Source: Thermoproteota archaeon (GTDB lineage: Archaea; Thermoproteota; Bathyarchaeia; Bathyarchaeales; Bathyarchaeaceae). Taken from it: DNA of 64,000 nt. The translations under genes and the position numbers were made by a program. Shown here in pieces: positions 3,938 through 53,106 of the stretch. Positions within the stretch are counted from its first letter, which is position 1; every line of letters starts with the position of its first letter. The notes under the pieces are model-generated. The model searched no databases. It worked only from the letters and a program-made list of their open reading frames with translations, and was not told the DNA's origin. The stretch lies in assembly GCA_042565955.1 (NCBI GenBank), contig JBHORG010000001.1:22230-86229 (forward strand), written 5' to 3'.

Positions 3938-3981
3938 GGTTTTTCTCAAAAAGAGTTGATTTCAACAATGAAGTATTATAG
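3938..3981 (-). repeat. Dispersed conserved intergenic element, copy D
   Basis: Minus-strand reading is ctataatacttcattgttgaaatcaactctttttgagaaaaacc, which aligns with copies at 18794, 29182, 41561 and 53062. It lies 38 nt downstream of the small minus-strand ORF 4020..4262, in the gap convergent with gltX. Confidence 0.75.
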
Positions 3982-4019
3982 GGAGAATAATAGAAACGAA
4001 TTGGAATTTGTGTGAATGT

Positions 4020-8193: not shown

Positions 8194-9711
8194 ATGAAAA
8201 CAGATTCGAAACAGGTCAATGGACGAAAAGCCTCCGTTTTTAGAGAGGTATACCCGATTCATGAGCCCTACGTCTATGCTGCAATCGTTATTGAACCAAA
8301 GACTCATAGAATAAAGTATGAATTGATTGAACCCACACTCCTTGAACAAGAGGAAAAACAACTCAAAGAAATCAAGGCAATACTTGTTGAGGAAATCGAT
8401 GTTAACCTCAAAGAAATAGGAACTCGAGAAAAGGCTGAGGCATATCTGAAAACAAAGATTCGTGAAATCATCAATGATTACCGCCTTAAAATCGACGAAG
8501 ATTCCGTGGACAAATTCATATACTATATTATACGTGATTTCCTAGGTTACGGAAAAATAGATCCCCTCATGAAAGATCCCATGATCGAAGATATCTCAGC
8601 AGATGGAGTCAACATTCCAATATATATTTGGCATCGTAACTACGAGTCCCTTCCAACAAATATTCTCTTCAAAAACAGCACGGAATTAAACTCGTTCATA
8701 GTACGATTGGCTTACTTGTCAAAAAAGAACATCTCACTTGCAATGCCCATCCTTGACGCGTCTCTACCAGATGGTAGCCGAATTCAAATGACTTACGGAA
8801 GCGAGATTACGCGAAGAGGTTCAACGTTTACAATACGTCGTTTCCGTGTTGACCCACTCACAATATCTGATTTGATATCGTTTGGCACCCTTTCATCTGA
8901 GATGGCTGCATATTTCTGGTATGCAATTGAGAATAGAGCATCGTTTCTTGTGGCTGGAGGAGTTGCCTCGGGAAAAACGACTATACTTAATTGCTTTTCG
9001 ATGTTTATCAAGCCTGGACTAAAGCTGGTCAGCGTAGAAGACACTGCTGAGTTAAACTTGCCACATGAAAACTGGATTCCATCGGTTGCACGGACTGGTT
9101 TTGGTCACAATGAGAATGAAAATGGAGATATTACATTATTTGATCTTTTGAAAGCAGCAGTCAGGCAAAGACCAGACTACCTGATTATTGGTGAGGTTCG
9201 GGGAGAAGAAGCCTATACTCTTTTTCAAGCCATGGCAACTGGGCATCTGGGAATGGGAACAATCCACGGTGAATCTGCAAGTTCAGTTATTCACCGTTTG
9301 GAATCAGAGCCAATGAACATTCCACGATCGCTCTTGACAATGATTGATGCTATACCTGTTCAGTTGCGAACCGAAGTTGATGGAAAACCTGTTCGAAGAA
9401 CTCATGCAATAACAGAAATTGTGGGTTTAGATCCTAAAACAAGGGAACTGTTAACTCATGATGTGTATCGATGGGACGCAAGAAGTGATTCCTTTGTATA
9501 TTCTGGGCATAGCCACCTATTGGAAGAAAAGATGAAACGCAAGGGGCTAAACAAAAAAGAGCTTCAAAATGAGCTGTATCAACGAAAAACTGTTCTTGAT
9601 TGGATGGTAAAGAAGGGGATTCGCAAGTACACTGATGTTGTTTCGGTTATCAGAGAATATTATGCCGATCCTACCCGTGTCTTCCGAAAGGCTAGGTTGG
9701 AAAAATCATGA
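8194..9711 (+). CDS. Type IV pilus/secretion ATPase (archaeal PilB/ArlI-FlaI family)
   Basis: Walker A GGVASGKTT, Walker B/Asp box RPDYLIIGEVRGEEA and His box GHLGMGTIHG. ATGA overlap with the next gene. Confidence 0.85.
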   Translation: MKTDSKQVNGRKASVFREVYPIHEPYVYAAIVIEPKTHRIKYELIEPTLLEQEEKQLKEIKAILVEEIDVNLKEIGTREKAEAYLKTKIREIINDYRLKIDEDSVDKFIYYIIRDFLGYGKIDPLMKDPMIEDISADGVNIPIYIWHRNYESLPTNILFKNSTELNSFIVRLAYLSKKNISLAMPILDASLPDGSRIQMTYGSEITRRGSTFTIRRFRVDPLTISDLISFGTLSSEMAAYFWYAIENRASFLVAGGVASGKTTILNCFSMFIKPGLKLVSVEDTAELNLPHENWIPSVARTGFGHNENENGDITLFDLLKAAVRQRPDYLIIGEVRGEEAYTLFQAMATGHLGMGTIHGESASSVIHRLESEPMNIPRSLLTMIDAIPVQLRTEVDGKPVRRTHAITEIVGLDPKTRELLTHDVYRWDARSDSFVYSGHSHLLEEKMKRKGLNKKELQNELYQRKTVLDWMVKKGIRKYTDVVSVIREYYADPTRVFRKARLEKS

Positions 9712-10712
9712 CTGGAAGCAAACTGAGAAAGAAGTTTAAAAATTTTTATTTCAGAGCCAAGAATTCTTTCCTGGGCAGTTCCTCTTCAGAAAACAGTAGG
9801 TTTTCTCGATGGAAAGCGAGCCTTAGATTAGGCGCAACTAAACCGCAGGTTTTTGCTTATCAGCTTGTCGGAGGACAATCATCTAGGGTTCTTCCGTTAT
9901 TCACAGATCTTGCTTCCAGTTTAAAAAAGTCAGGGATGAAAAGTAACTTTAAAGCTTATGTTAGCACAACAATTCTGGCTAGTTTGTTGATGTCAGCTTC
10001 AATCATAATTGTTGTTCCAGTGCTTCTGTTGTTCATCTTTAACCTTTCTCTTGTTATGGCTCTTCTTTTTGGTGTGGGAATAAGTCTACTTGCTGGAGCT
10101 GTAACTGTGATTGCTTTCTATGTTTATCCCAGCTATCGAGCAGACGGTTTGAAAAGAGCGTTAGAAGATGATCTCCCTTTCACTACAGGTTTTATGTCAA
10201 TTTTAGCTGGGGCTGGTGTACCTCCAGATTTTATATGGCGAACTTTGGCTCAAGTTGACGATTCGTTAGCAGTTACTACGATGGCGAAAAATGTGGTTCG
10301 GGACGTAGAACTTTTTGGGTTAGATGTTATCTCAGCGCTGGAAAACATGTCCAAACGAACACCTTCTGAAAGATTCAAAGAGATGGTTGAAGGTTTTATT
10401 TCAGTAGTTCACTCAGGAGGCAACTTGGTGAAATATCTTAGAAACCGTTCACAGCAGTATATGAAACTAAAGGAGATTGCGCTGAAGCGTTTCTCTGATA
10501 GTCTTGCAGTTTTGGCGGAATTTTATGTTACTCTAATGGTGGCGGGATCCCTTATCTTTGTAGTTATGCTTGCGGTCATGTCAATGTTGGGTGGTGGAGG
10601 ATTTGGTCCGTTTGATTCTCGTCTTTTATTGCAGCTATTGACTTATCTCGGCTTGCCGATTGGCTCGGTAATATTTCTGGTAATATTAGATGTGATTTCA
10701 CCGAAGAGATGA
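9708..10712 (+). CDS. Polytopic membrane platform protein, T2SS-F/TadB-TadC/FlaJ-like (first half-size paralogue)
   Basis: 334 aa with a cytoplasmic helical domain flanked by TM helices. It sits immediately after the ATPase, and its half-size pairing with the next ORF resembles Tad systems. Confidence 0.7.
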   Translation: MTGSKLRKKFKNFYFRAKNSFLGSSSSENSRFSRWKASLRLGATKPQVFAYQLVGGQSSRVLPLFTDLASSLKKSGMKSNFKAYVSTTILASLLMSASIIIVVPVLLLFIFNLSLVMALLFGVGISLLAGAVTVIAFYVYPSYRADGLKRALEDDLPFTTGFMSILAGAGVPPDFIWRTLAQVDDSLAVTTMAKNVVRDVELFGLDVISALENMSKRTPSERFKEMVEGFISVVHSGGNLVKYLRNRSQQYMKLKEIALKRFSDSLAVLAEFYVTLMVAGSLIFVVMLAVMSMLGGGGFGPFDSRLLLQLLTYLGLPIGSVIFLVILDVISPKR

Positions 10713-14321: not shown

Positions 14322-14695
14322 TGGTTCCTCGTATCTTAATTTACCTTAAGTTTCATATAAAGAAGTGCTTAGATAACGTTCTCCTGTATCCGATAATATT
14401 ACCACCAAGGTTTTTTTTCGTTTTCTGGAAGTTTAGCAATCTGTAATGCTCCTAATTCTTTTTTCTAAAAATAGTTCACGCAATAATTTTCCCTCGTTTG
14501 GCAGCTATTTTGTCCATTGATCCTAGATTATAACACTGTTATGTACTTTTGTTGACGAAAAAAATTCTTTGCAGCAACCAAAAGACACGGTAATAAATAC
14601 CAAAGAAATGACCCTACCCTTTTTTTAAGAAAAGGATACACTTCCAATAGAACATAGAAAGCAAAACACTTTTCCATATCATTCTGAAGTTTACG

Positions 14696-18793: not shown

Positions 18794-18838
18794 CAGTTTT
18801 CTAGAAAAAGGCTGTTTTCAACAATGGTATATTATTAG
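18794..18838 (-). repeat. Dispersed conserved intergenic element, copy C
   Basis: Minus-strand reading is ctaataatataccattgttgaaaacagcctttttctagaaaactg. It lies in the divergent gap between ino1 and polB, about 70 nt upstream of the ino1 start. Confidence 0.75.
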
Positions 18839-19138
18839 TTGACTAACAATATTGAAAGAAAAGTCGGGATCTCGCATTATTCGATTTCCTTTTTGTTTGA
18901 TGTACTCATCAAAAAGCGATTACTCACTAGTGTGAGCAATATTTGATGGGTGCTTGAAATATTTTATATGGTATGGGTCTCAACTATGATTAGTTAATGG
19001 GGATTACAAGTTGGTTGAGAGTCGAAAAGACCTTTGTGGTTGTGTTTTTGAGATTCAGGAGGGCATTACAGTTTGTGTAAAGCGATGTCTCAAGCATAGC
19101 AGACCAAAACGGAAGCGTCCTTTCAGAGCCAAAGCTGA

Positions 19139-21922
19139 ATGCGTAAGACCCTAACAAATTGCATCAGAGCTTTTTTTAATGGGCACAATGAAATATACCC
19201 ATTAACGGACCAGAAAAAGATGACTACACAGAGCTCACTTGAGTTATTTGGTGTTCCAGAAAAACAGAAGAAGACAACAGTATCTTCCTCACCTGATCAA
19301 AAGCCAAGAGGATATTTTTCACCTAAACAGAAAGCTCTTTCAGAAAAAAACCCACTTGTTGTATACCCTGATTTCCCAGAAAACCTGCCCCCATCATACC
19401 TTGTATCTGTCACATACCATGGAAAAAAGCAGCTAGCCAGCCTAAAATTATATGAGCCCGAGTCTGAAAAAATCTACTTCTGGGATGACAACACCGGGCA
19501 CAAACCCTATTGTCTTACAAGTCTTGCTCCAGAGGAACTTGAAAAACTCAAACGAGTAACATCACATTCTGGCTTTGACCACTTCGAAACCGTTAATAAG
19601 TTTGACCCTCTTTATGACCAAAACGTAATAGTAACGAAGGTTGTGGCAAAGGACCCATTGGCGATAGGAGGCCGCCAAAGCGGCTCTATGCGAGACATAA
19701 TCCCTAATGATTATCAACAATTAACTGGATTTGAGGAACCTCCCAAAGTCTGGGAATCCTATATCCGTTATTATCAATCCTACATTTACGATAAAAACCT
19801 AGCTCCTGGTATGTTATATGAAATTCAGAACGGAAACCTTGTTCCCATACATCAGACTTCATCAAAAGAGACTATAGAAAAAATCTTGAGTCTATTCTCT
19901 GGAGTAAGCAAAGAATTTTTGGAAAGTGTAGAAAAATGGGCACGTCTACTAGAATCTCCGGCTCCTGACTTTCGAAGAGTCGGCCTCGACATCGAGGTGA
20001 GTTCTCCAATTGCAACTCGTATTCCTGATCCGCAAAAAGCTGATAATCCTGTTGTTTGTGTGGCGCTAGTTGGTTCGGATGGAAAAAAAGAGTTATTCAT
20101 TTTGAAGCGGGATGGAATAGAGACAGGCAATAAAAAACTGCCACTTGACACGATTGTCACATATTTTGATGATGAAAAAAAGTTGCTTTCGAAACTTTTT
20201 AGTGCTCTTCGGGAGTATCCTTTTGTTTTAACCTTCAATGGCGATGATTTCGATCTGCCATACCTATATAACAGGGCTAAAAATCATTTCAATTTTGAAC
20301 GAAACCAGATTCCAATACACGTTGGACAAAGAGTATGCCAAGTTACTCATGGCGTTCACATTGACCTCTACAAGTTCTTCTTTAACAGGTCAATACAAAT
20401 CTACGCCTTCGGCAACAAATATAGGGACATAACCCTAAACGCAGTCGGCACTGCACTGCTAGAAATGCCAAAAATTGAATTCGAAAAACCACTTTCAGAA
20501 CTAAGTTACACCGAACTTGCCGAATACAACCTACGTGACTCCGAAATTACCTTAGACCTAACAGTCTTTAACGATAACTTGGTCATGAAACTAATCTTAG
20601 CCATTTCAAGAATTGTCCATATGCCCATGGAGGACGTGAGTCGCCAAGGAGTTTCACGATGGATACGTAACTTTCTGTATCATGAGCATCGCCAAAGAAA
20701 CATGTTGATTCCAAACATGGAAGACATACTTGCTCTTAAAGGCGGAACCACAACCAAAGCCATGATCAAAGGAAAAAAATACAAAGGAGCTATAGTTGTT
20801 GACCCTGTTCCAGGTGTCCACTTTAACGTGGCAGTTATGGACTTCGCTAGCCTGTATCCATCCATAATAAAAGTTCATAATCTGGGCTATCAAACCCTAC
20901 TCTGTAAACATGAGGAATGCAAAACAAACAAGGTTCCCGAGACCACTCACTGGGTATGCACCAGAAATAAAGCTCTTGAAAGTCTGTTGATAGGGTCACT
21001 TAGGGATCTTCGAGTCAAATGGTACAAGCCCAAATCTAAGGACAAGACTTTATCCAAGGATTTACAGAGCTGGTATAATGTAATCCCAAGCGCCCTCAAA
21101 GTTATTCTTAACGCAAGCTACGGAGTTTTCGGTTCACCTGCCTTTGGTCTATATTGTCCACCTGTTGCTGAAGCCACAGCCGCCATCGGCAGACACGTAA
21201 TAACCAAAACTATAGAAAAAGCCAAATCGCTAGATATTGAAGTTCTTTATGGCGACACAGACAGCGTCTTTTTGAAGAATCCCTCCCCCGAACAGATAGA
21301 AATATTGGCCAATTGGTCTATAGAGAACATGGGAATGGAACTGGAAGTCGAAAAATTCTATCGCTACGCTGTCTTTAGTTCCCGCAAAAAGAATTATCTT
21401 GGAATCTTGAAGGGAGGCGGCGTTGACGTCAAGGGAATGACCGGAAAGAAACGCCACATTCCTCCCTACATCAAAAAAGCATTTTTACAACTGGAAAAAC
21501 GACTAGAACAGGTGCAGTCACCCTCAGAATTCGAGGAAGCCAAAAAAGAGATTAAGAAAATTATCCGAGACAGGTACTTGCGATTGAAACAACGCCGTTG
21601 GGGAGACAGCCCAGAGGAACTAGCATTTCATGTTGTTCTTGGTAAACCGCCAGAAGCTTACACAAAAACTACTCCTCAACATGTAAAAGCGGCTCGTATT
21701 CTAAAAAATATAGGTTACGATATGAAAGCTGGTGACTTGATAAGTTTCGTCAAAGTTATGAAGGAACCCCGGGTTAAACCCGTGCAAATAGCAACTAATA
21801 ACGAAATTGATGTAGACAAATATGTTGCCCACCTACAATCAACTTTTGATCAAATTCTAGATGCTTTGGGTTTAGACTTTGATGAGATAATTGGCTTAAC
21901 TAAGCTTTCACGCTTTATGTAA
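19139..21922 (+). CDS. polB: Family B DNA polymerase
   Basis: Exo motifs LDIEV and FNGDDFDLPYL. Pol motifs DFASLYPSII, KVILNASYG and YGDTDS. Alternative start at ATG 19220 (MTTQSSLELFG...). Confidence 0.9.
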   Translation: MRKTLTNCIRAFFNGHNEIYPLTDQKKMTTQSSLELFGVPEKQKKTTVSSSPDQKPRGYFSPKQKALSEKNPLVVYPDFPENLPPSYLVSVTYHGKKQLASLKLYEPESEKIYFWDDNTGHKPYCLTSLAPEELEKLKRVTSHSGFDHFETVNKFDPLYDQNVIVTKVVAKDPLAIGGRQSGSMRDIIPNDYQQLTGFEEPPKVWESYIRYYQSYIYDKNLAPGMLYEIQNGNLVPIHQTSSKETIEKILSLFSGVSKEFLESVEKWARLLESPAPDFRRVGLDIEVSSPIATRIPDPQKADNPVVCVALVGSDGKKELFILKRDGIETGNKKLPLDTIVTYFDDEKKLLSKLFSALREYPFVLTFNGDDFDLPYLYNRAKNHFNFERNQIPIHVGQRVCQVTHGVHIDLYKFFFNRSIQIYAFGNKYRDITLNAVGTALLEMPKIEFEKPLSELSYTELAEYNLRDSEITLDLTVFNDNLVMKLILAISRIVHMPMEDVSRQGVSRWIRNFLYHEHRQRNMLIPNMEDILALKGGTTTKAMIKGKKYKGAIVVDPVPGVHFNVAVMDFASLYPSIIKVHNLGYQTLLCKHEECKTNKVPETTHWVCTRNKALESLLIGSLRDLRVKWYKPKSKDKTLSKDLQSWYNVIPSALKVILNASYGVFGSPAFGLYCPPVAEATAAIGRHVITKTIEKAKSLDIEVLYGDTDSVFLKNPSPEQIEILANWSIENMGMELEVEKFYRYAVFSSRKKNYLGILKGGGVDVKGMTGKKRHIPPYIKKAFLQLEKRLEQVQSPSEFEEAKKEIKKIIRDRYLRLKQRRWGDSPEELAFHVVLGKPPEAYTKTTPQHVKAARILKNIGYDMKAGDLISFVKVMKEPRVKPVQIATNNEIDVDKYVAHLQSTFDQILDALGLDFDEIIGLTKLSRFM

Positions 21923-21949
21923 ATAATCTGCTTCCAAAACACTGGAATT

Positions 21950-22288
21950 TCAACAATTCTTGTCGCCAATACACTTGGACTTGGTTCCTGTGTGCTTTAT
22001 TTCAACCCCTTCTTCGATGGGTTTGCAGGGTAATTGATATTTTTTGAATAGCCACATCAATTCATTGAAAGCTTTCTCATTAACTTCAAACTCCACAACC
22101 TCTGTCATCTCATCTATGACTGCTGGATGTTTTGGATTAGCTTTGTAGAGCATCATAAATTCAGTGTCTTGTTCAGACTTTGGCGGAACAGCTATTATTT
22201 CCCACAAAGACTTTGCCGGAAAGTTTCGAGGCGGATATCGTTTTATCCTTATCTTTTTCAGTGTCTCTACTCCCTCTCCTTGGCACAC
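21950..22288 (-). CDS. Hypothetical protein
   Basis: 112-aa ORF in an otherwise unoccupied gap; no family recognised. Confidence 0.3.
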   Translation of the reverse strand: MCQGEGVETLKKIRIKRYPPRNFPAKSLWEIIAVPPKSEQDTEFMMLYKANPKHPAVIDEMTEVVEFEVNEKAFNELMWLFKKYQLPCKPIEEGVEIKHTGTKSKCIGDKNC

Positions 22289-22501
22289 TTTTTATAACAT
22301 GATTTTAATCTTTCCTATAAGCGGTCATGGTTCCTTTCTCTATACTTATTGTATAGACAATTAGTAGGTAATAACCTATCATAAAAATAGTCTAATTTAT
22401 TATTCAGCTACGTTCATATGTCCTTTCTTGGAACTATTTTGTGTTCATGAAAACCTTAATCTTCTAATCATCCACAATAGCGTTAAGGGGCAACACCAAA
22501 A

Positions 22502-23317
22502 ATGATACTGTTCATAGCCTCAACAAAAGACATAGCTAGCATGAACATCGCCAAGCAACTAATAACTTACTATCGCTTCGAAAAACTCCAAGAAACCTTC
22601 CACCAAAACCCCGTTTACACAAAATCGCTTCATAACAAACAAACCAAACTCCTCTTTGTAGATACAGAAATTGTGGACACCCAGTTCTTGGGCGACATCC
22701 TTAAACCCTATCTATTTGTCTTCTTATCTAGACACAGCAGCGTTAAGGGCATCCCCACCCTTTCTGTACACACTCCTGGGAACCTATCCATTGCTAAATT
22801 CGGTGGTAAATCCGGAAAAGTTTCCATATCTCCCGCGGGTCCCATGAAAAATGCTCTCTTAGAAATGTCAAAACTGGTAAATGAAAAAGGGCTAGATTAC
22901 GAAGTTTCTTACGAATGCACTCACCATGGGCCCTCTTTAGATGTGCCAACCATGTTCGTAGAATTAGGCAGCTCGTCTAAACAATGGAAAGACACCAAAG
23001 CTGCCAAGGTTGTTGCAGATGCAGCTGTTGCTGCTGTTTCTGATTGTCCTGACTGTTCTGTGGTATTGGGAATCGGCGGACCACATTATAACAAAAAGTT
23101 TACAAAACTGGCTCTAGGAAATCAGAGGGCATTTGGTCACATGATTCCAAAGTATGCTCTCGGTGAGGTTGATGCTGAGATAATTACGCAATGTTTTGAA
23201 AGAACATTAGAGTCTATAGATTCAGTAGTTCTTGATTGGAAGGGAATCAAAGGTGAACACAAATCCAAGATTCTTACTACGCTAGATGGTCTTGGTGTGT
23301 ATTCAGAAAAAGTTTAG
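22502..23317 (+). CDS. dtdA: D-aminoacyl-tRNA deacylase, archaeal type (DTD2)
   Basis: FLSRHSS...TLSVHTPGN, YECTHHGPS, LGIGGPHY...FGHMIPKYA and VLDWKG match archaeal DtdA. Confidence 0.85.
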   Translation: MILFIASTKDIASMNIAKQLITYYRFEKLQETFHQNPVYTKSLHNKQTKLLFVDTEIVDTQFLGDILKPYLFVFLSRHSSVKGIPTLSVHTPGNLSIAKFGGKSGKVSISPAGPMKNALLEMSKLVNEKGLDYEVSYECTHHGPSLDVPTMFVELGSSSKQWKDTKAAKVVADAAVAAVSDCPDCSVVLGIGGPHYNKKFTKLALGNQRAFGHMIPKYALGEVDAEIITQCFERTLESIDSVVLDWKGIKGEHKSKILTTLDGLGVYSEKV

Positions 23318-23343
23318 GTCTAAAAAAAGTGGATTGGGGAAAT

Positions 23344-23739
23344 TTATTTTATTCCCCATTTTTTAGTAACTTTCACTAGTATGAAAATAACAAACGCAAC
23401 GATAATGAACGTTATCAGTGCAACTAGAAAGCCTCCAACTCCGAACTCCTGATTGTTAACTGGAATTTTTAGAGTTGACAGGTTATCCATATTGGGAAAC
23501 ACTAAGCCAATGATTGGCATTATCAAATCTGTAACCATCGATTGCACTAGCTGACCAAGATACAAACCCAAAATGAAAGCGACAGCAAGTCCCATAACTT
23601 TGTAATTTTCTATAAAGCTCTTGAATTCATTCCATAATCCTTTCGGTGCTGGTGGTGGCGGAGCAGGTTTAGCGGCTAAGAGTTCTCGTATTTGCGTGAG
23701 TTCTTTTAACATTTCCTCTTCTTTCGACATTCTTCTCAC
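23344..23739 (-). CDS. mscL: Large-conductance mechanosensitive channel
   Basis: FKSFIENYKVMGLAVAFILGLYLGQLVQSMVTDLIMPIIG resembles the MscL TM1 region, and a second TM lies near the C-terminus. The N-terminus has a Pro-rich extension. Confidence 0.7.
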   Translation of the reverse strand: MRRMSKEEEMLKELTQIRELLAAKPAPPPPAPKGLWNEFKSFIENYKVMGLAVAFILGLYLGQLVQSMVTDLIMPIIGLVFPNMDNLSTLKIPVNNQEFGVGGFLVALITFIIVAFVIFILVKVTKKWGIK

Positions 23740-23891
23740 CCGTTATTATTACCCGATTTTCGCCTTTTAACATCTGTTGTGCCGTAAAAAGCACTTCAAT
23801 CTTTGTCAAAACCGTAATAAAATACAATACTATATGTTACAAACTGGTTGCCCACAGGGATAACTTTACATATTAGAATTTAATTTGAAAG

Positions 23892-24080
23892 GTGCGAGGA
23901 ACATTGGGACTAAGATCATTCTTTCAGTCAGCATCCAGATTGCTGAAACTTGCCACAAAACCAGGCAGAACCGAGCTCTGGCTCTCGCTAAAAATATGCT
24001 TTCTTGGAACCATTGCAATCGGAGGAATCGGATTCTTAATCAAGATCATTTTTGAGGGCGTCCGCCCGTTACTAGGTTGA
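23892..24080 (+). CDS. secE: Protein translocase subunit SecE (Sec61 gamma)
   Basis: 62 aa with a single C-terminal TM and KLATKPGRTELW. It sits in the conserved position upstream of spt5-L11. Confidence 0.8.
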   Translation: MRGTLGLRSFFQSASRLLKLATKPGRTELWLSLKICFLGTIAIGGIGFLIKIIFEGVRPLLG

Positions 24081-24086
24081 TAAATT

Positions 24087-24563
24087 ATGAGCGAAGAGAA
24101 TAAAATTTCAACAGCAGTATTCGCCGTACGAACAACTGCAGGTCAAGAGAAAAACGTGGCAAATGTAATCGAAGCCAAAGCAAAAATGGGCGAGATTCCG
24201 ATAACAGCCGTACTTGTACCTGAACTGTTAAAGGGCTATGTTTTCATCGAAGCGGATGGACCACATTCAGTAGAGAAAGCAATAACCGGAGTTAGACATG
24301 TAAGATCCCGAGTTCCAGGTGTTGTGACCTTTCCTGAAGTAGAACGATACATTGTAATAAAACCGGTGATCGAAGAATTAGACGCGAACGATCTCGTTGA
24401 GGTTGTTGGAGGGCCATTCAAGGGAATGAGAGCCAAAATCACGAGGGTTGACAAGGCAAAGGAAGATGTAACCCTTGAATTGTTGGAGGCTACCTTTACT
24501 TTACCAATCACGGTTCACGCGGACTACGTGAAACTTGTCGGGAAATCTAAAAAGGAAGAATGA
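24087..24563 (+). CDS. spt5: Transcription elongation factor Spt5 (NusG homologue)
   Basis: NGN domain (VFAVRTTAGQEKNVA) plus KOW motif (VEVVGGPFKGMRAKI). Conserved secE-spt5-L11 synteny. Confidence 0.9.
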   Translation: MSEENKISTAVFAVRTTAGQEKNVANVIEAKAKMGEIPITAVLVPELLKGYVFIEADGPHSVEKAITGVRHVRSRVPGVVTFPEVERYIVIKPVIEELDANDLVEVVGGPFKGMRAKITRVDKAKEDVTLELLEATFTLPITVHADYVKLVGKSKKEE

Positions 24564-24567
24564 AAAC

Positions 24568-25053
24568 ATGGGAGAAAAGAAAGTTGTTGAAGCATTGGTT
24601 AACGGCGGGCAAGCTACCGCTGGGCCTCCCCTTGGACCCGCGTTGGGGCCTTTGGGAGTCAATGTTCTAGCTATTGTAAACAAAATCAACGAGATAACAA
24701 AAGACTATGCTGGCATGAAAGTGCCCGTGAAAATCAGCGTTGACACTGATAATAAAGAGTTTGAAGTGAGCGTAGGAACGCCTACGACTTCGGCGTTGCT
24801 AGTTAGCGAATTGGGAGTAACAAAGGGCTCAGGAGTTCCTAATACTGAAAAGATTGGTGACTTATCTTTGGAACAGATTGTTCGTATTACTAAAGTCAAG
24901 AGTGACGATGTTTTGGGTAAGGACCTGAAAGCAGCGGTTAACGAGATTTTGGGTACTGGCGTTAGCATGGGCGTAACGGTGGAAGGCAAAGACCCCCGCG
25001 AAGTTCAAAAAGAGATCAAAGAAGGAAAGCACGACGCTTTACTAACTAAATAA
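24568..25053 (+). CDS. rpl11: Ribosomal protein L11
   Basis: VNGGQATAGPPLGPALGPLGVN is the L11 hallmark. I prefer ATG at 24568 over the longer ORF-track start. Confidence 0.9.
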   Translation: MGEKKVVEALVNGGQATAGPPLGPALGPLGVNVLAIVNKINEITKDYAGMKVPVKISVDTDNKEFEVSVGTPTTSALLVSELGVTKGSGVPNTEKIGDLSLEQIVRITKVKSDDVLGKDLKAAVNEILGTGVSMGVTVEGKDPREVQKEIKEGKHDALLTK

Positions 25054-25115
25054 ATTTACCAGTAACAAGATTTTTATAACTGGCTCTTGTACGTCATTGG
25101 CGCGAGGCTCTACGA

Positions 25116-25766
25116 ATGCCACTAAATATGAAAAATATCCTTGCTGCGGTTAAAGAAGTTAAAAGCAAGGCTACTGAACGTAAGTTTTCCCAGTCCATAG
25201 ACCTCGCTATAAACTTACAGAATATTGACATGAAGAAACCTGAGGGTAGAATTCAGGAACGTATCGAATTGCCAAATTCTGTAGGAAAGGTACTAAAAAT
25301 CTGTGTGATTGCCTCAGGCGAGATGGCATTTAAAGCAAAAAAGTCTGGAGCTAGCTTTGTCCTCGAAAGAGCTGCCCTTGAATCTTTAGTTGGTGACAAG
25401 AAACAGCAGAAAGAGATAGCTAAAAAGTATGATATATTCATAGCCCAAGCTCCCATGATGTCTCTTGTAGGTAAGAGTCTTGGTGCATCCCTTGGACCTA
25501 GAGGGAAGATGCCTACTCCAGTAGCTCCTAATGCTGATATTAAAGAGCAGATTGAGAAACATCAGAAAATTGTGTTTGTAAGAATGCGAGGGCAACCTGT
25601 TATTCAGTGCCGCATAGGAAACGAAGCTATGAAAGATGAAGAAATAGCTGAAAATGTTCAGGTTATTGTTAGGAGAATCGAAGGAAAACTAAAAAGAGGA
25701 ATCAAAAACTTCAAGTCTGTTTACCTGAAAACCTCGATGGGTTCTTCAGTTAAGGTTGCTATGTAG
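25116..25766 (+). CDS. rpl1: Ribosomal protein L1
   Basis: FSQSIDLAINL...PRGKMPTP... is typical L1 sequence, in the conserved operon position. Confidence 0.9.
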   Translation: MPLNMKNILAAVKEVKSKATERKFSQSIDLAINLQNIDMKKPEGRIQERIELPNSVGKVLKICVIASGEMAFKAKKSGASFVLERAALESLVGDKKQQKEIAKKYDIFIAQAPMMSLVGKSLGASLGPRGKMPTPVAPNADIKEQIEKHQKIVFVRMRGQPVIQCRIGNEAMKDEEIAENVQVIVRRIEGKLKRGIKNFKSVYLKTSMGSSVKVAM

Positions 25767-25775
25767 GGAAAAGTT

Positions 25776-26654
25776 ATGGTGGTCCGTCAATCAACTCTGC
25801 TAAAGGCTGACAAAGTTAAAGAACTAAAGGAATTCCTGTCAAAATATAATTCGATAGGAATTGCCAGCCTAGAAAAGGTCAGGTCTGCCCAACTTCAACA
25901 ATTAAGGAAAAAGTTGGCTAAGAACGCTTGTCTTCGAGTTGTTAAAAACTCTCTCATCGTAAGGGCTGTTTCTGAAACCAAGGAAAGTACTGGAATTGAA
26001 AAGCTTGAGGAACACCTGACAGGACCCAACTTGTATCTTTTTACGAACCTAAATCCATTCAAACTTGCAATTCTTCTTGAAAAGAGCAGGGTTAACGCAA
26101 CCGCTAGGGGAGGAGACTTGGCAGCATTTGATGTTACAGTTCCTGCTGGAAACACTGGATTACCTCCTGGTCCAATCATTAGTCAATTTACTGCTGTCGG
26201 TTTGCGTACACGAATAGAATCAGGTAGCGTTTATGTGTCAAGAGCCACAATGGTGGTTAAGAAAGGTGAACCTATAAGTAGTCAGCTTGCGAGTTTGCTT
26301 TCTAAGCTTGGAATAAAGCCTGTTGAGGTCGGTTTAAGCTTAAAAGTGGTTTATGATGACGGGGCAATCATAACTGAAGAAGATTTGGTTGTGGACATAG
26401 CTGGGGTTCAACGAAGCGTTGAAGAGGCTCATCAGTTTGCTTTCAATTTGTCTTTGGAGGCGGCTTATCCTCTTCCAGAGAACATTAATTATCTTCTTAG
26501 GCGTGGTCATCAGGAAGCCTATAGTCTAGCGTTGAATGCTGGTGTCATGACCAAGGACACTATTGCCGATCTTATCAGAAAGGCTAGCGTGGAAATGTTA
26601 GGCCTAAACGAAAAACTAGATGAAGCCGAGAAAAAGAATGGGTCATCGAATTAA
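25776..26654 (+). CDS. rplP0: Ribosomal stalk protein P0 (L10), lacking the usual acidic C-terminal tail
   Basis: L10 N-domain (GIASLEKVRSAQLQQLRK) and an archaeal insertion domain. The ORF ends ...EKLDEAEKKNGSSN without the Ala/Glu-rich GLGxLF tail. Confidence 0.85.
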   Translation: MVVRQSTLLKADKVKELKEFLSKYNSIGIASLEKVRSAQLQQLRKKLAKNACLRVVKNSLIVRAVSETKESTGIEKLEEHLTGPNLYLFTNLNPFKLAILLEKSRVNATARGGDLAAFDVTVPAGNTGLPPGPIISQFTAVGLRTRIESGSVYVSRATMVVKKGEPISSQLASLLSKLGIKPVEVGLSLKVVYDDGAIITEEDLVVDIAGVQRSVEEAHQFAFNLSLEAAYPLPENINYLLRRGHQEAYSLALNAGVMTKDTIADLIRKASVEMLGLNEKLDEAEKKNGSSN

Positions 26655-26706
26655 GTTCAGAAAAGTTGAAAAGTAAGTATGATTGAAAAGATGGAGGAGA
26701 ATGAAT

Positions 26707-27015
26707 ATGGAATACGTATATGCTGCGATGCTCTTGCATAAAGCTGGAAAAGAAATAAACGAAAAGAACGTTTCTGAAGTTCTCACGGCAGCCGGCGTAA
26801 GTGCCGATTCTGTCCGAGTTAAAGCTTTAGTGGCGTCCATTGCCGAAGTTGACATCGAGGAAGCAATCAAATCTGCTCCTACAATGATGGCGGCAGCACC
26901 AGCGACTGCAGCTGCAGCACCAGCCGAAGAAGAAAAGAAGGAAGAAGAAGAGGAAGAAGACGAGAGCAAGAAAGAAGAAGCAGCAATGGAAGGTTTAGGT
27001 TCCCTGTTCGGATAA
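26707..27015 (+). CDS. rpl12: Ribosomal stalk protein P1 (L12e)
   Basis: [17 protein letters not shown]... with tail [18 protein letters not shown]...[17 protein letters not shown] precedes the ATG at 26707. Confidence 0.9.
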
Positions 27016-27043
27016 ACGGTCTAGTATCGTTTTCCTGAACTGA

Positions 27044-27075
27044 GGGGAGGCTTTTCCTCTCTCTGTATTCTTTTT
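27044..27075 (+). terminator. Possible hairpin plus T-run after the ribosomal stalk operon
   Basis: GGGGAGG-cuuuu-CCTCTCT stem (with G-U pairs) followed by ttcttttt. Seen by eye only. Confidence 0.3.
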
Positions 27076-27322
27076 GATTTCTTTGTTTTCTTAGCTACTG
27101 CAAAGTTATTTATCACTCGAGTCGTTTTAAGGGAGAACTTATAATCTCTTATAGTCCCTTTTGATTTCAGTGTTTAATAATTGGTAGATTTGATGCTTTA
27201 TTTAGCTCTTTAAATAACTTAAGTGGATTTTTTTGGATCTTGAACAGAACATCTTCAAGACAGTTTTGTGGATAAACCGGTTACGCTATGGATATTAAGC
27301 AGTTCTGACCAAAATCCTATCT

Positions 27323-29131
27323 ATGGCTATAGATTCAAAAAAGTTAAGGAAATTATTCTTGGATTTCTTTAGTGAAAACGAGCATAAGTTAATTCCAAAT
27401 TCTCCTCTTATTCCAGAGTATGATCCTACAGTTCTTTTCACTCCGGCAGGTATGCATCCTCTTATTCCATATTTTTTGGGGCAGTCTCATCCGCTTGGAA
27501 AGAAACTCGTGAATGTTCAAAGATGTTTTAGGACTGGAGACATCGAATGTGTTGGGGATAATTCGCACTTAACTTTTTTTGAAATGTTGGGTAACTGGTC
27601 TCTAGGTGATTACTTCAAAAAAGAGGCCATTAGGTTGAGCTATGACTTTCTTACAGACAAGAGATGGCTAAACTTGGACAAAAAACGGTTGTTCGTAACT
27701 GTGTTTGCGGGAGATCAAAATGCTCCAAAAGACACTGAGAGTTGTGAATCATGGAGTGTTTTGGGTATTCCCGATGATCATATCTTTTTTTTGTCAAAGG
27801 AGGATAATTGGTGGGGTCCAGTTGGTAACACAGGACCTTGTGGACCTTGTACTGAAATGTTCTATGATACTGGAAAGCCGTCCTGCAGTCTATCCTGTGG
27901 ACCTGGTTGTTCATGTGGTAAATTTTTTGAGCTCTGGAACGATGTTTTTATGGAATATAACAAAACTTCTTCAGGCTGTTATGAACTCCTAAAACAGAAG
28001 AACGTTGATACTGGAATGGGCGTAGAACATACTGCCGCAATGCTTGAAGCCAAAGAGAACGTATTTCAGATTGCTGCAGTTCGACCAATAGCAAAAAGAG
28101 TGGAGGAGATTGCCTCAATTAGTGTGCCAACTCCTGTTGAAGAAAAATCTATTAGAATTATTACTGATCATATTCGTGCTTCAACATTCTTTCTGGGTGA
28201 CGAACGAGGAGTTAAGCCAAGCAATGCCGATCGAGGGTATGTTTTACGTCGGTTAATCCGACGTGCAATAAGATTTGGACGATTAATTGGAATTGAAAGA
28301 GATTTCTTGACGAATCTTGCTGACATTGTCATAATACTTAACGAGTTTGAGTATCCTCTGCTTAGAGAAAAAGAAGCTAGCATACTTGATGAGATAAGTA
28401 AAGAAGAGGTCAAGTTTAAGAGGACTCTTGCAAAGGGTTTGAGGAAGTTCAAGCGAATAGCAAATAATAGTCCAAAGATTGACGGAAAAAATGCTTTCTT
28501 GTTGTTTCAGAGCTTCGGATTTCCTATTGAGTTGACAAAAGAGCTTGCTACAGAGAGTGGTATTGAAGTTGACGAGGAGGAGTTCAGGAATGAGTATGGA
28601 CGGCATCAGAAAGTCTCGTCTGCAAGTGCAAAAAAGCTGTTTAAAGGTGGTTTAAGTGACGCATCTATAGAGACTATAAGACTTCATACTGTAACACACA
28701 TACTAAATGAAGCATTGCGAAGAGTCTTAAAAAATAGAAATATTGTTCAAAGAGGGTCGAACATTACTCCAGAACGGTTGCGTTTTGACTTTAATTTCGA
28801 TAGACCTCTGGAACATAACGAAATAGATTCAATTGAAAAAATGGTTAATGAGCAAATTAGGAAAACTTTGCCTGTGGTTAGAGAAGAAATGACTGTTGAA
28901 GAGGCAAAAAATAGGGGTGCACAAGCTGTGTTTGATACTAAATACGGTGGTGCGGTAATATCTGTTTATAACATAGGAGATTTCTCGACCGAAATTTGTG
29001 GTGGGCCTCATGTTGATAGTACAATTGATTTGGGGACTTTTAAAATAACAAAACAAAAAGGCATCGCAGCCGGAGTCAGAAGAATACGAGCCGTACTTCA
29101 AAAGAATCCAGAAGAGGCAAAGCACAGGTAA
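27323..29131 (+). CDS. alaS: Alanyl-tRNA synthetase, bacterial-type, short form without C-Ala domain
   Basis: The N-terminal region is collinear with bacterial AlaRS (DPTVLFTPAGM, FFEMLGNWSLGDYFK, GPCGPCTEMFYD, VDTGMGVEH). Editing motifs HTVTHILNEAL and CGGPHV are present. The ORF stops at 602 aa right after GVRRIRAV. Confidence 0.8.
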   Translation: MAIDSKKLRKLFLDFFSENEHKLIPNSPLIPEYDPTVLFTPAGMHPLIPYFLGQSHPLGKKLVNVQRCFRTGDIECVGDNSHLTFFEMLGNWSLGDYFKKEAIRLSYDFLTDKRWLNLDKKRLFVTVFAGDQNAPKDTESCESWSVLGIPDDHIFFLSKEDNWWGPVGNTGPCGPCTEMFYDTGKPSCSLSCGPGCSCGKFFELWNDVFMEYNKTSSGCYELLKQKNVDTGMGVEHTAAMLEAKENVFQIAAVRPIAKRVEEIASISVPTPVEEKSIRIITDHIRASTFFLGDERGVKPSNADRGYVLRRLIRRAIRFGRLIGIERDFLTNLADIVIILNEFEYPLLREKEASILDEISKEEVKFKRTLAKGLRKFKRIANNSPKIDGKNAFLLFQSFGFPIELTKELATESGIEVDEEEFRNEYGRHQKVSSASAKKLFKGGLSDASIETIRLHTVTHILNEALRRVLKNRNIVQRGSNITPERLRFDFNFDRPLEHNEIDSIEKMVNEQIRKTLPVVREEMTVEEAKNRGAQAVFDTKYGGAVISVYNIGDFSTEICGGPHVDSTIDLGTFKITKQKGIAAGVRRIRAVLQKNPEEAKHR

Positions 29132-29181
29132 TTCCAAACACACAAAACCATACTATAAACCTTAACAATCGTAATAGGAGA

Positions 29182-29226
29182 CTAATAATACTTCATTGTT
29201 GAAAACTACCTTTTTTCTGAAAAACC
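29182..29226 (+). repeat. Dispersed conserved intergenic element, copy A
   Basis: ctaataatacttcattgttgaaaactaccttttttctgaaaaacc lies in the convergent gap between alaS (50 nt upstream) and metK. Confidence 0.75.
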
Positions 29227-29277
29227 AAACAACAATAAAAAAGAAAAATAAAAAAAAGTCTATGGTGTCTGGCTGTT

Positions 29278-41456: not shown

Positions 41457-41560
41457 AGCCATCCACATCTGACCAATGCGCTAAATTTTCTTATAAGTTA
41501 CGCTGGTCAAGCAGGAATGAAAAAGAAATTGTTGTTAAAGAGCCGTATCTCGTTAGGAGC

Positions 41561-41601
41561 CTAATAAGAGGAAATTGTTAAAAACAACCTTTTTTTAGAC
41601 C
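41561..41601 (+). repeat. Dispersed conserved intergenic element, copy F (slightly shortened)
   Basis: ctaataagaggaaattgttaaaaacaacctttttttagacc. Its 3' end overlaps the purE stop codon (ttagac on plus is gtctaa on minus). It lies between purE and purM in the opposite orientation to both. Confidence 0.65.
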
Positions 41602-42119
41602 GCAAGCCTGTTAACGTCTTTTTTTTCTGTTATTTTCTTTACTTCTTTTGCTCCATCGTAGACTGTTTTTGCCATCTTTTCCTTAAACTTGTCCAATTGT
41701 TCTTTTAGTTCAGGGTTTGTTAAAGCAAAAATCCTTATGGCTACTAGGGCAGCATTTTCTGGCTTAACAACATAAGCAACAGGTATTCCTTTTGGCATTG
41801 CAGTCGAAGAAAACACTTTGTCACTTCCATGTTTGTCCGAGTCTGGAGGGCAAGCAATAACAGGACAAAGAGTGTATCCGGCAACAACTCCTGAAAGGGC
41901 ATCAGATAAACCCGCAACAGTGACATAGACTATTCTGTCGCCGCTTTCTGTATATTTGTTCAAGTCATTCAATAGTTTTTCTGGAGTCCTATGTGCAGAA
42001 GCAACGTTGTAAACACAACTAACTGGAATTTTTTCCTTTTTCAAGAAATCTTTGATTTTTGCTGCAAACGGAAGGTCTCTTGGAGACCCCATAAGAACAA
42101 CAATCTTTTCTTCTGTCAT
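41595..42119 (-). CDS. purE: AIR carboxylase / N5-CAIR mutase family protein
   Basis: VVLMGSPRD, VASAHRTPEKL and the overall 174-aa layout parallel archaeal PurE. No purK is adjacent. Confidence 0.8.
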   Translation of the reverse strand: MTEEKIVVLMGSPRDLPFAAKIKDFLKKEKIPVSCVYNVASAHRTPEKLLNDLNKYTESGDRIVYVTVAGLSDALSGVVAGYTLCPVIACPPDSDKHGSDKVFSSTAMPKGIPVAYVVKPENAALVAIRIFALTNPELKEQLDKFKEKMAKTVYDGAKEVKKITEKKDVNRLAV

Positions 42120-47651: not shown

Positions 47652-48296
47652 ATGTTGTTTTGCAAAAAATATAAATATTATTTAGCGTACACCCTCTTTT
47701 GCTCTACAGGGGAAACCCAATTGCAAAGACTAGACACCAAAAAACTTGCATTAGCCAGCATGTTGGGAGCTCTGGCTGCAGCATCAGAGGCGATTAAAGG
47801 TCCACCATTCGACATCCCCTTCCCACTTCTGCCAGGCGTTGTTTCTTGGGACCTAACTGGAGTGCCCATGACGATGAGCTTACTTGTTGCTGGTCCCCTT
47901 GCCGCAGTATACACGTGTGTTATCGGCTGTTCAATTATTTTTCTTCGTGGAAACGTTGGTGGTGGCTTACTAAAACTCATTGCTGAATTAGCAACTATTT
48001 TGGCGTTTGCTGCAATCTGCAGAGGCTTCATACCAAAAACAATTGCAGCGGTTACATCCAGAGTTCTAGTGATGACAGCCGCAAATTATTATCTGCTTCC
48101 AATATTCTGGTCCAAATACTACCCATCTGAGGCAACCGTAATTGTGATCCTGCTTCCATTAGCAGCGTTTAATATCTCCCAAGCGTTACTCAACATAATT
48201 CCTGCACAACTCATCTACTCTAGATTGGATGGTTGGTGGCGATTACGCGGCCAAGAAACAAAACCTCTTGATTACGGTTCACTTAACATGAAATGA
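47652..48296 (+). CDS. Polytopic membrane protein, possibly ECF-transporter S-component-like
   Basis: Five or six hydrophobic helices with ALASMLGALAAASEAI near the N-terminus. Family assignment is tentative and the start is uncertain. Confidence 0.35.
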   Translation: MLFCKKYKYYLAYTLFCSTGETQLQRLDTKKLALASMLGALAAASEAIKGPPFDIPFPLLPGVVSWDLTGVPMTMSLLVAGPLAAVYTCVIGCSIIFLRGNVGGGLLKLIAELATILAFAAICRGFIPKTIAAVTSRVLVMTAANYYLLPIFWSKYYPSEATVIVILLPLAAFNISQALLNIIPAQLIYSRLDGWWRLRGQETKPLDYGSLNMK

Positions 48297-48390
48297 TGGT
48301 GGACCGGGCGGGATTTGAACCCGCGGCTTCCGCCTTTTTCTGCTTGGTGCTTGCGAAGGCGGCGTTCATACCAGACTGAACTACCGGCCC
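48297..48390 (-). tRNA. tRNA-Ala (anticodon CGC) with canonical-position intron and encoded CCA
   Basis: The reverse complement folds as GGGCCGG-TA-GTTC/GAAC D-arm, CCGCC/GGCGG anticodon stem, loop TTCGCA..A, GCGGG-TTCAAAT-CCCGC T-arm and CCGGTCC-A-CCA. A G3:U70 Ala identity pair is present. About 16 nt of extra sequence sits after position 37 (about 48336..48351). Confidence 0.9.
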
Positions 48391-52482: not shown

Positions 52483-52647
52483 ATGAACGGAGACTGTTGT
52501 TGTGGCTCAGATTGTCAGGACTATGGACACGGATCTAGAAAAGTATTAACTAAAACAGAAAGAATCGAGAAACTTAAAAATTACGCAGAAGAACTAAAGA
52601 AAGAACTTGTAGCCGTGGAAGAAAATATAAAAGAATTAAGCAAATAA
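52483..52647 (+). CDS. Unannotated 54-aa Cys-rich / coiled-coil micro-protein
   Basis: Below the ORF-track length cutoff. It translates as MNGDCCCGSDCQDYGHGSRKVLTKTERIEKLKNYAEELKKELVAVEENIKELSK. A strong GGAGGTGA sits 8 nt upstream and a hairpin plus T6 follows. The C-terminal half resembles the DUF5320-type coiled coil, from memory. Confidence 0.5.
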   Translation: MNGDCCCGSDCQDYGHGSRKVLTKTERIEKLKNYAEELKKELVAVEENIKELSK

Positions 52648-52835: not shown

Positions 52836-52994
52836 CGGGCGGTAGCTCAGCTTGGTAGAGCTTCCGAGCCAGCCTAACATCGGTCTGGGCTGACGGAGAC
52901 GCTGTAGACGTCTACCAGTATGGTGGGCATCATTTAGCCTATCAAGCGTACAGACACCGGAACGTCGCAGGTTCAAATCCCGCCCGCCCGACCA
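52836..52994 (+). tRNA. tRNA-Tyr (anticodon GTA) interrupted by two non-canonical introns; CCA encoded
   Basis: Exon 1 is CGGGCGG-TA-GCTC-AGCTTGGTA-GAGC (52836..about 52861). Exon 2 is AGACG-CTGTAGA-CGTCT, a perfect anticodon arm (52897..52913). Exon 3 is ACGTC-GCAGG-TTCAAAT-CCCGC-CCGCCCG-A-CCA (about 52962..52994). The C1:G72 pair is the archaeal Tyr identity element. The spliced product is 77 nt. Confidence 0.85.
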
Positions 52995-53061
52995 TACTCC
53001 ATTTCTGGTGGGTCTGACAAGAAAGCCAAAACTGGTATTAACAAATCCGCATATTGGGGGC

Positions 53062-53106
53062 CTGAAAATATTTTATTGTTGAAAACAACCTTATTCTTAG
53101 AAAAAC
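53062..53106 (+). repeat. Dispersed conserved intergenic element, copy B
   Basis: ctgaaaatattttattgttgaaaacaaccttattcttagaaaaac lies 67 nt downstream of tRNA-Tyr and about 95 nt upstream of the acdB-like gene. Confidence 0.7.

Follow-up and report, generated by a model that had tools for sequence, protein, structure and literature searches.

A multi-copy intergenic element of Bathyarchaeum-type archaea as a candidate integrase attachment site and two-way terminator

Short sequences repeated between genes have been described in several systems. The dRS3/NIME repeats of Neisseria number in the hundreds, lie between genes in arrays of units of about 50-150 bp, serve as prophage integration sites and are linked to chromosomal rearrangement; dRS3 itself, a bacterial sequence, is an inverted repeat of 20 bp on which an enzyme of the Piv/MooV type acts. 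REP/BIME and REPIN-RAYT elements are extragenic, and REPs form stable, imperfect palindromes that mostly occur as inverted pairs and are associated with a Y1 (RAYT) transposase. Integron attC sites and pdif-Xer modules hold single accessory genes between sites of fixed orientation, attC being a folded single strand with little sequence conservation that forms one array beside intI. Archaeal tRNA-gene att sites are conserved, multi-copy targets that stay intact after integration and have an integrase at the island border. Archaeal RNA polymerase, for its part, stops at oligo-T tracts.

We analysed a dispersed element in a 64-kb stretch of Bathyarchaeia DNA, here called the window. An earlier note on this DNA had reported five intergenic copies of a 45-nt block, and all five sites were confirmed at the same coordinates and on the same strands. 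Their full extents, with the segment between two of them, are:

29170..29239, + strand: copy A, type I, the strongest copy of the window (HMM 58.5 bits, E 2.7e-16), with the 5' block at 29170-29181, CTAATA at 29182-29187, the core CATTGTTGAAAAC at 29194-29206, T6 at 29211-29216, A5 at 29220-29224 and the tail CCAAACAACAAT at 29225-29236
53050..53106, + strand: copy B, type I (HMM 30.5 bits), its T run interrupted (CCTTATTC)
18794..18850, - strand: copy C, type I (HMM 42 bits)
3938..3994, - strand: copy D, type I-like with a degenerate 5' third (HMM 23.8 bits, model positions 18-67)
41549..41605, + strand: copy F, type I-like with core ATTGTTAAAAAC and no 3' A run (HMM 34.6 bits)
18851..29169, no strand: the 10.4-kb segment from C to A (PolB ... 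L11/L1/L10/L12 ... AlaRS), bordered by the inverted copies C (-) and A (+)

Scanning the window with the 22-mer CATTGTTGAAAACAACCTTTTT and allowing up to three mismatches returned exactly these five sites, where 0 are expected from 100 dinucleotide shuffles. An HMM of the element, trained on 72 copies from other genomes and then run on the window, recovered the same five with E-values between 2.7e-16 (A) and 1.8e-5 (D) and gave no further window match at E<1. The stretches near 14541 and 43025, once proposed as degenerate copies, have no HMM match and only a vague resemblance to the element, and that proposal is unsupported. Reading off both sequences, A and B agree at 25 of 30 positions, as had been counted before. 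The length of 45 nt was too short: the conserved part covers about 57-70 nt, begins about 12 nt further upstream at CATATTAGGAGA and often reaches CCAAGCAACAA. All five copies are placed in the intergenic DNA that makes up 10.9% of the window, and only copy F extends into a gene, sharing 11 nt with purE at its stop codon.

AlaRS (stop 29131) and MAT (stop 29278) converge on copy A, with their 3' ends on either side of it. Copy B begins 55 nt after the end of a tRNA gene that the earlier note had placed there and that is genuine, an intron-containing tRNA-Val at 52836-52994; the called start of an ATP-grasp_5 (acd-like) gene follows 94 nt downstream, with a TATA-like box of its own between copy B and the gene, and orthologous copies stand 5' of the same gene in L071 and L019. 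Copy C occupies a divergent spacer, 72 nt from the start of ino1 and 288 nt from PolB. Copy D is antisense to GluRS and 22 nt past its stop codon, so placed that its reverse strand holds the first T5 run that follows GluRS; a doubtful ORF of 64-80 aa ends 25 nt upstream of this copy. Copy F is antisense to purE, and its 5' end is 80 nt upstream of an AIRS-family gene, to which it is likewise antisense; the element of L060 is placed in the same way relative to its AIRS gene.

Some gene calls in the same parts of the window deserve mention. The tRNA-Val gene (+ strand) has a long intron and was missed by ARAGORN at default settings and by Rfam at the gathering threshold; it was found by the ARAGORN intron search. 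The same search assigned to tRNA-Ala a 94-nt tRNA gene at 48297-48390 (- strand), for which ARAGORN had first given an undetermined four-base anticodon and which overlaps in position with the 3' end of an ORF on the other strand (47652-48296). Between a 132-aa ORF and tRNA-Val, a small cysteine-rich ORF (MNGDCCCGSDCQDYGHGS...) at 52483-52647 (+ strand) has a coiled-coil-like tail and a weak coding score.

The consensus of the element reads CATATTAGGAGA-CTAATA-N6-CATTGTTGAAAAC-NN-CCTTTTTT-CnG-AAAAACC, in many copies with AAGCAACAA after it. Three blocks, CTAATA, ATTGTTGAAAA and T5, contain the letters that are invariant or nearly so, with T44-T48 conserved at 90% or more, and the positions between the blocks vary freely, in part in a genome-typical way. 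Conservation is lowest in the 5' block, which some genomes lack. An exact-pattern scan of a collection with one genome per species gave 104 matches, about 80 of them in 16 Bathyarchaeia genomes that are mostly labelled Bathyarchaeum; the Bathyarchaeia matches all have long conserved flanks, whereas the bacterial ones share the searched letters only. Outside the window the element occurs in more than 100 further copies, spread over 16 or more Bathyarchaeia genomes and over related contigs from metagenomes. Next to MAT, the element is present in most contigs whose MAT is at least 80% identical and absent from 44 of 44 whose MAT is at most 69% identical. The element is restricted to Bathyarchaeum-type archaea. 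Exact-pattern numbers per genome differ widely: two complete genomes have 1-3 and one fragmented MAG has more than 20, the two ends of the range. Copies recur about every 10-15 kb among housekeeping genes. A search of the literature for the motif and for intergenic repeats of Bathyarchaeum found nothing relevant, and in the viral collection the element pattern matched nothing but a contig with the same sequence as one from a MAG, and one relative of it.

Two subtypes, I and II, are distinguished by the sequence immediately 3' of the core. Copies that stand alone, the window's five among them, belong to type I, and a type I copy with a close neighbour nearly always has a type II copy as that neighbour, frequencies that are biased because the search pattern picked type I copies. 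Chimeric copies combine the 5' variable block of one subtype with the 3' block of the other.

Two further observations concern repeats near the element. In the JBAZEV genome (L001, L033, L034, L046, L062, L078, L088) many copies follow a partial duplicate of their own 5' block (GGGCATATTTGTAT before CATATTTGAAGA), and CCCCAGAAAAC, ahead of the duplicated block, is conserved too. A second dispersed intergenic repeat, approximately GGGTTAAATTTTAACCCCAAACCCAAA with the palindrome GGGTTAAA/TTTAACCC, is unrelated to the element in sequence; it occurs in L188 at 6762-6788, 7708-7728, 8265-8291 and 10341-10367, and similar strings lie downstream of MAT in L113, L120 and L134.

Set beside the described systems, the element resembles the Neisseria repeats in being multi-copy and intergenic, in its arrays, in its link to integration sites and in rearrangement. 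It differs from dRS3 in its length of 60-70 bp, its asymmetry, its T runs, its tyrosine integrases and its archaeal host. With REP/BIME and REPIN-RAYT it shares an extragenic position, gene 3' ends, genome-specific masters, persistence at orthologous sites, clustering and, as predicted, effects on termination, and its many extragenic copies (five in 64 kb, 94 of 96 units intergenic, more than 20 in one MAG) are a REP trait; unlike REPs, it has no stable palindrome, forms direct arrays and has no Y1 among the most frequent neighbour families sampled. The terminal inverted repeats of MITEs are likewise missing, as CATATTAGG and CCAAGCAACAA are not complementary and no fold shows terminal pairing. 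The right boundary is gradual, and no target-site duplication is evident in alignments of the flanks. Of the readings offered earlier, a REP/MITE-like dispersed repeat comes nearest to the data, although the element lacks the REP palindrome and the MITE termini.

Like attC cassettes and pdif-Xer modules, the element can bracket single accessory genes between sites of fixed orientation, with a divergent tyrosine recombinase in one case (L026). In contrast to attC it is conserved in sequence, has no hairpin and is scattered among housekeeping genes instead of forming a single IntI-type array, and the bracketed genes are of mixed orientation. As at tRNA-gene att sites, a conserved multi-copy target remains intact and an integrase stands at the island border beside it (seven integrases, at 59-128 nt); unlike them, the target is no gene of known product, is far more numerous than any one tRNA and belongs to one clade. 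Archaeal oligo-T terminators share with it T5-T8 just past the stop codon, here on both strands, but need no conserved upstream sequence of 40 nt, which the element has. In its mode of action the element would come closest to multi-copy repeats between genes that also serve for integration.

The way in which copies are grouped bears on this. Within doublets and triplets the copies are repeated in direct orientation every 85-106 nt, and two-copy composites of more than 200 nt recur at several loci of one genome (L033/L046/L019; L001/L062). At all 23 of 23 multi-copy loci the orientation is the same throughout, including 12 of 12 pairs that lie 0.35-4.4 kb apart, whereas pairs more than 5 kb apart have the same orientation in five cases and opposite orientation in four. 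Since agreement is confined to distances below about 5 kb, it is a local effect and not a replichore-wide polarity. A replichore-scale polarity signal of the Chi/KOPS kind was rejected on the same ground; no Orc1/Cdc6 family is encoded between C and A. Close pairs typically bracket one or two accessory genes, among them an N6_N4 DNA methylase, a CAP12-type TIR protein, EamA transporters and NosD-like proteins, and gene orientation within the brackets is not uniform. L089 has an ORF with no known function between MAT and AlaRS with two copies around it, where the window has a single copy.

Seven distinct tyrosine-integrase genes of three distant lineages, whose mutual identity is only 22-27% over the aligned parts, lie 59-128 nt from a copy of the element. 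When three tyrosine recombinases were used as tblastn queries against the element and MAT loci, homologues were found only in L026, L122 and L123, in each of which the integrase is 59-128 nt from the 5' end of the element and is transcribed away from it; L026, with the order integrase, element, EamA, element, is the sole case of an integrase next to a bracketed gene. Relatives fetched by protein similarity alone show the same adjacency at other chromosomal loci: next to proB (L188), next to LplA (L197/L206), at another locus (L198-201/L204) and in L202, where the element is co-oriented with the integrase. More distant integrase relatives (L189-L196, L203) lie in other contexts without the element. 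The integrases are few relative to the number of elements. Islands led by them carry defence genes (restriction, TIR, GmrSD, NYN, toxin-antitoxin). No attL/attR pair was found, and recombinase action on the element is for this reason something that we infer. No significant second element or direct repeat was found within 5-10 kb downstream of three to four of the integrases, where the islands may be longer than the DNA covered; nor was a free element carrying attP found, integrase searches of the viral collection being empty. The earlier note had foreseen neither the integrase link nor the genes flanked by two copies nor the synteny breaks described below.

The islands at L204 2012-10609 and L205 4859-12320 encode, among others, TIR_2, an N6_N4 methylase, an MvaI/BcnI nuclease, two GmrSD proteins, NYN, a VapB-like protein and HxlR. 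A relative of the L026 integrase (81% identity) lies in a virus-like region (L189 2117-6368 and L190) that has capsid and cement protein genes and a second integrase, with no element nearby. In L195/L196 (3336-6317) a related integrase stands beside a full DUF116 gene and a partial or second DUF116 copy, and looks like a case of integration into the end of a protein-coding gene.

The MAT locus allows the fate of one orthologous copy to be followed. The orthologue of copy A adjoins MAT in most contigs whose MAT shares 80% identity or more, and gene order upstream of MAT is kept in 28 of 28 contigs. Beyond the element, AlaRS comes next in only 7 of about 30 contigs, and elsewhere PolB, tRNAs, CobD, DsbD or integrases take its place. 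In the metagenome contig L133 the order is MAT, element, PolB (tblastn places PolB next to the MAT-proximal element), and alignment shows that the left part of this locus corresponds to the MAT side of A in the window and the right part to the PolB side of C. The 10.4-kb segment from C to A is therefore inverted between the window and L133, and the junctions of the inversion fall inside copies of the element.

The element at this site has also decayed independently in about a third of lineages, losing its 5' half and core. L123, L126, L134, L139 and L142 retain the sequence from (G)AAAAC on and nothing before it, the 5' part alone is left in L135, and L111 has lost TTGAAAACnnCC; these truncations place their breakpoints within about 12 nt of the core. 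An apparent truncation in L131 is really divergence, and the clustering could in part reflect divergence of this kind or selection that keeps the T/A-run part. Whether the MAT-proximal copy is intact is independent of whether its distal neighbour converges on it.

What is conserved in the element is a set of sequence blocks and not a fold. The GTTG/CAAC and TTTTC/GAAAA hairpins of the earlier note exist as letters, with neither compensatory change nor folding stability. Fold z-scores of six sequences (the window copies and the consensus, either strand) ranged from -1.45 to +0.68, no better than shuffled sequence, and RNAalifold found no consensus structure on either strand. Among 128 distinct copies, no covariation above a shuffled control was seen on any measure for the helices TATTAG/CTAATA, GTTG/CAAC and T5/A5: candidate-helix scores were equalled by 271 of 500 and 279 of 500 shuffles, pair 33-40 is broken in 42 of the 128 copies and pair 9-16 in 51. 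Rfam has no match to the element at gathering or E-value thresholds. Three other structural or array readings were set aside. Pairing of the two variable blocks is good in one genome (GTAGTT/AACTAC) and fails in others. C/D-box sRNAs were rejected on inspection, the boxes being absent and the 'guides' conserved. CRISPR arrays do not fit, with only 2-3 units and 'spacers' that are conserved and recur at other loci of the same genome.

Block conservation without a fold, the adjacent integrases, the direct pairs, the synteny breaks with one inversion and the breakpoints at the core together point to a DNA recombination site that is read by protein. Our preferred reading, in which we place about even confidence, is that the element is a multi-copy integrase attachment or crossover site that doubles as a two-way oligo-T terminator. 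It would be a clade-specific, multi-copy module of double-stranded DNA, about 60-70 bp long, built on the blocks CTAATA, ATTGTTGAAAA and T5-7, and its main activity would be as a substrate for recombination. Islands led by tyrosine integrases would sit beside it as their attachment or crossover site. Copies would also recombine with each other, giving rise to genes bracketed by two direct copies, to short direct arrays and to deletions that leave a single copy, and between inverted copies to inversions. The crossover is predicted in or beside the invariant core, around the boundary between ATTGTT and GAAAAC. In its second role the element would stop transcription in both directions, its T6 run serving the sense strand and its GGTTTTTC run the opposite one. 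Ordinary homologous recombination between 60-bp repeats, with no dedicated enzyme, could account for the subtype recombinants, for the exchange of flanks and for part of the rearrangements. Two things sit badly with a recombination site that also terminates: about 20% of units lie between divergent genes and fit neither a terminator nor a gene 3' end, and spread to new loci is left unaccounted for.

Placement was counted from codon-scored gene calls and tRNA calls for 96 units (83 single copies, 11 doublets and 2 triplets), 94 of which are intergenic. Both neighbours are known for 74: 24 of these lie between convergent genes, 21 between co-directional genes in sense orientation, 14 between co-directional genes in antisense orientation and 15 between divergent genes. 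Convergent spacers thus hold 32% of units against an expectation of 19% by number or 11% by usable length, an enrichment, and divergent spacers, with 40% of usable intergenic length, are depleted. The gap to a facing gene 3' end on either side has a median of 33 nt, as against medians of 155 and 97 nt to gene starts; a gene 3' end is within 60 nt in 58% of units, and in L059, L063 and L064 a TAG of the element itself serves as the stop codon of the gene. On the sense strand a run of T5-T8 is almost invariant, T5 is found on the reverse strand of most copies as well, and the first T5 or longer run after the stop is supplied by the element for AlaRS (sense) and for GluRS and purE (antisense). 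With a T run on each strand, and tolerated only just past stop codons, the element is expected to act in both directions and is probably a two-way terminator of the genes that abut it. Alternatively, the T runs and the position at gene ends merely show where such a site is tolerated. Ahead of copy A, at 29230-29277, the strand of MAT has T8, T5 and T6 closely spaced, an unusually strong stand-alone terminator region.

These counts are also the ground for the strongest rival, which is possible but doubtful: that the element is a host-selected, protein-bound bidirectional terminator or insulator, whose 40 nt or so bind a clade-specific factor, and that integrases use the copies as a safe landing site, as they use tRNA genes. 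The T runs on both strands and the gene 3' ends that abut it on both sides suit this idea, as do the convergent spacers that are often filled entirely by the element. Variants with two forward T runs and no A run are found mainly inside arrays or between co-directional genes, decayed copies at MAT keep the T/A-run part, and orthologous positions are kept where the flanking proteins are only 69-86% identical to those of the window. Against it, plain T runs without the element follow most genes of the window, and MAT has three before copy A is reached; the integrity of the MAT-proximal copy does not depend on convergence by the distal neighbour; exact-pattern copies vary from 1-3 to more than 20 per genome; the 5' half and core are gone in about a third of lineages at one locus; and 15 of 74 units lie between divergent genes. 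A bidirectional terminator, as had been proposed, is plausible only for the 3' half of the element, where the T runs on both strands, the abutting gene ends and the pattern of decay agree; as a full account it meets about 40 nt of invariant non-T sequence, some 20% of units in divergent spacers, variable copy number and MAT's own T runs. The data would fit either a host terminator that integrases exploit or an element that exists because of a recombination system.

We consider it unlikely that the element is a selfish, REP/MITE-like non-autonomous repeat, copied by some unrecognised transposase, with the integrases uninvolved and both recombination and termination as side effects. Genome-specific variants and a mild homogeneity within genomes (identity among copies of 0.80 within genomes against 0.75 between them) would be expected of such a repeat, as would the two-copy composites duplicated at several loci of one genome, the differences in copy number, the genes that end in the element's TAG, and presence, absence and decay at orthologous sites. 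This reading has to contend with the lack of terminal inverted repeats and of a stable palindrome, and no transposase family, Y1_Tnp included, is among the 25 most frequent of the 159 Pfam families in 146 flanking proteins. Many copies are at orthologous positions across species, and the tight, oriented adjacency of integrases is not predicted by it.

A promoter or operator-type site, which would drive or regulate neighbouring genes or antisense transcripts from a TATA-like 5' block (CATATTAGG), is very improbable. The block is similar to GCATAAATT, the TATA region upstream of tRNA-Val in the window, copies B and C are upstream of co-oriented genes, and there is a precedent in halovirus HF2, for which intergenic repeats are reported to act as promoters (PMC8707807). 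However, only some half of units have a co-oriented gene downstream, as at random; the genes 3' of B and F have their own TATA-like boxes nearer the start codon; a start set by either TATA-like block would fall inside or just before the T6 run; and the 5' block is the part least conserved and sometimes absent. Alignments of the flanks showed no promoter-like conservation upstream of the element. We give almost no credence to the idea that the copies are small genes for a structured RNA family, or that they act in 3' UTRs as a motif recognised by an RNA-binding protein: placement independent of the neighbouring genes, direct tandem arrays that repeat every 85-106 nt and one-sided changes in the GTTG/YRRY stem that mostly stay G-U-compatible would agree with it, but covariation, a thermodynamic signal, an Rfam match and a conserved upstream promoter are all missing, sense and antisense positions relative to the abutting gene are equally common, and the small-RNA family once suggested for these sites falls with it.

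Returning to the element as an integrase attachment and crossover site, a more far-reaching form can be put forward tentatively, namely a genome-wide cassette system defined by sequence, in which tyrosine recombinases would cross over between ATTGTT and GAAAAC and circles of one gene and one element would insert and excise at about 100 copies. If this were true, Bathyarchaeum would have an archaeal analogue of integrons, scattered over the chromosome and able to rearrange gene order as well.

Most of the abundant Bathyarchaeia have yet to be cultivated, and we know of no account of how these archaea acquire genes or rearrange their genomes. A recognisable mark of 60-70 bp would locate mobile DNA and variable regions in their genomes and in metagenome bins, and would explain why contigs often break and synteny is lost at its copies. 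The element would also offer a defined substrate for assays of archaeal integrases. Provided that its T runs stop transcription as expected, genetic tools for this lineage could use it directly as a terminator in both directions.
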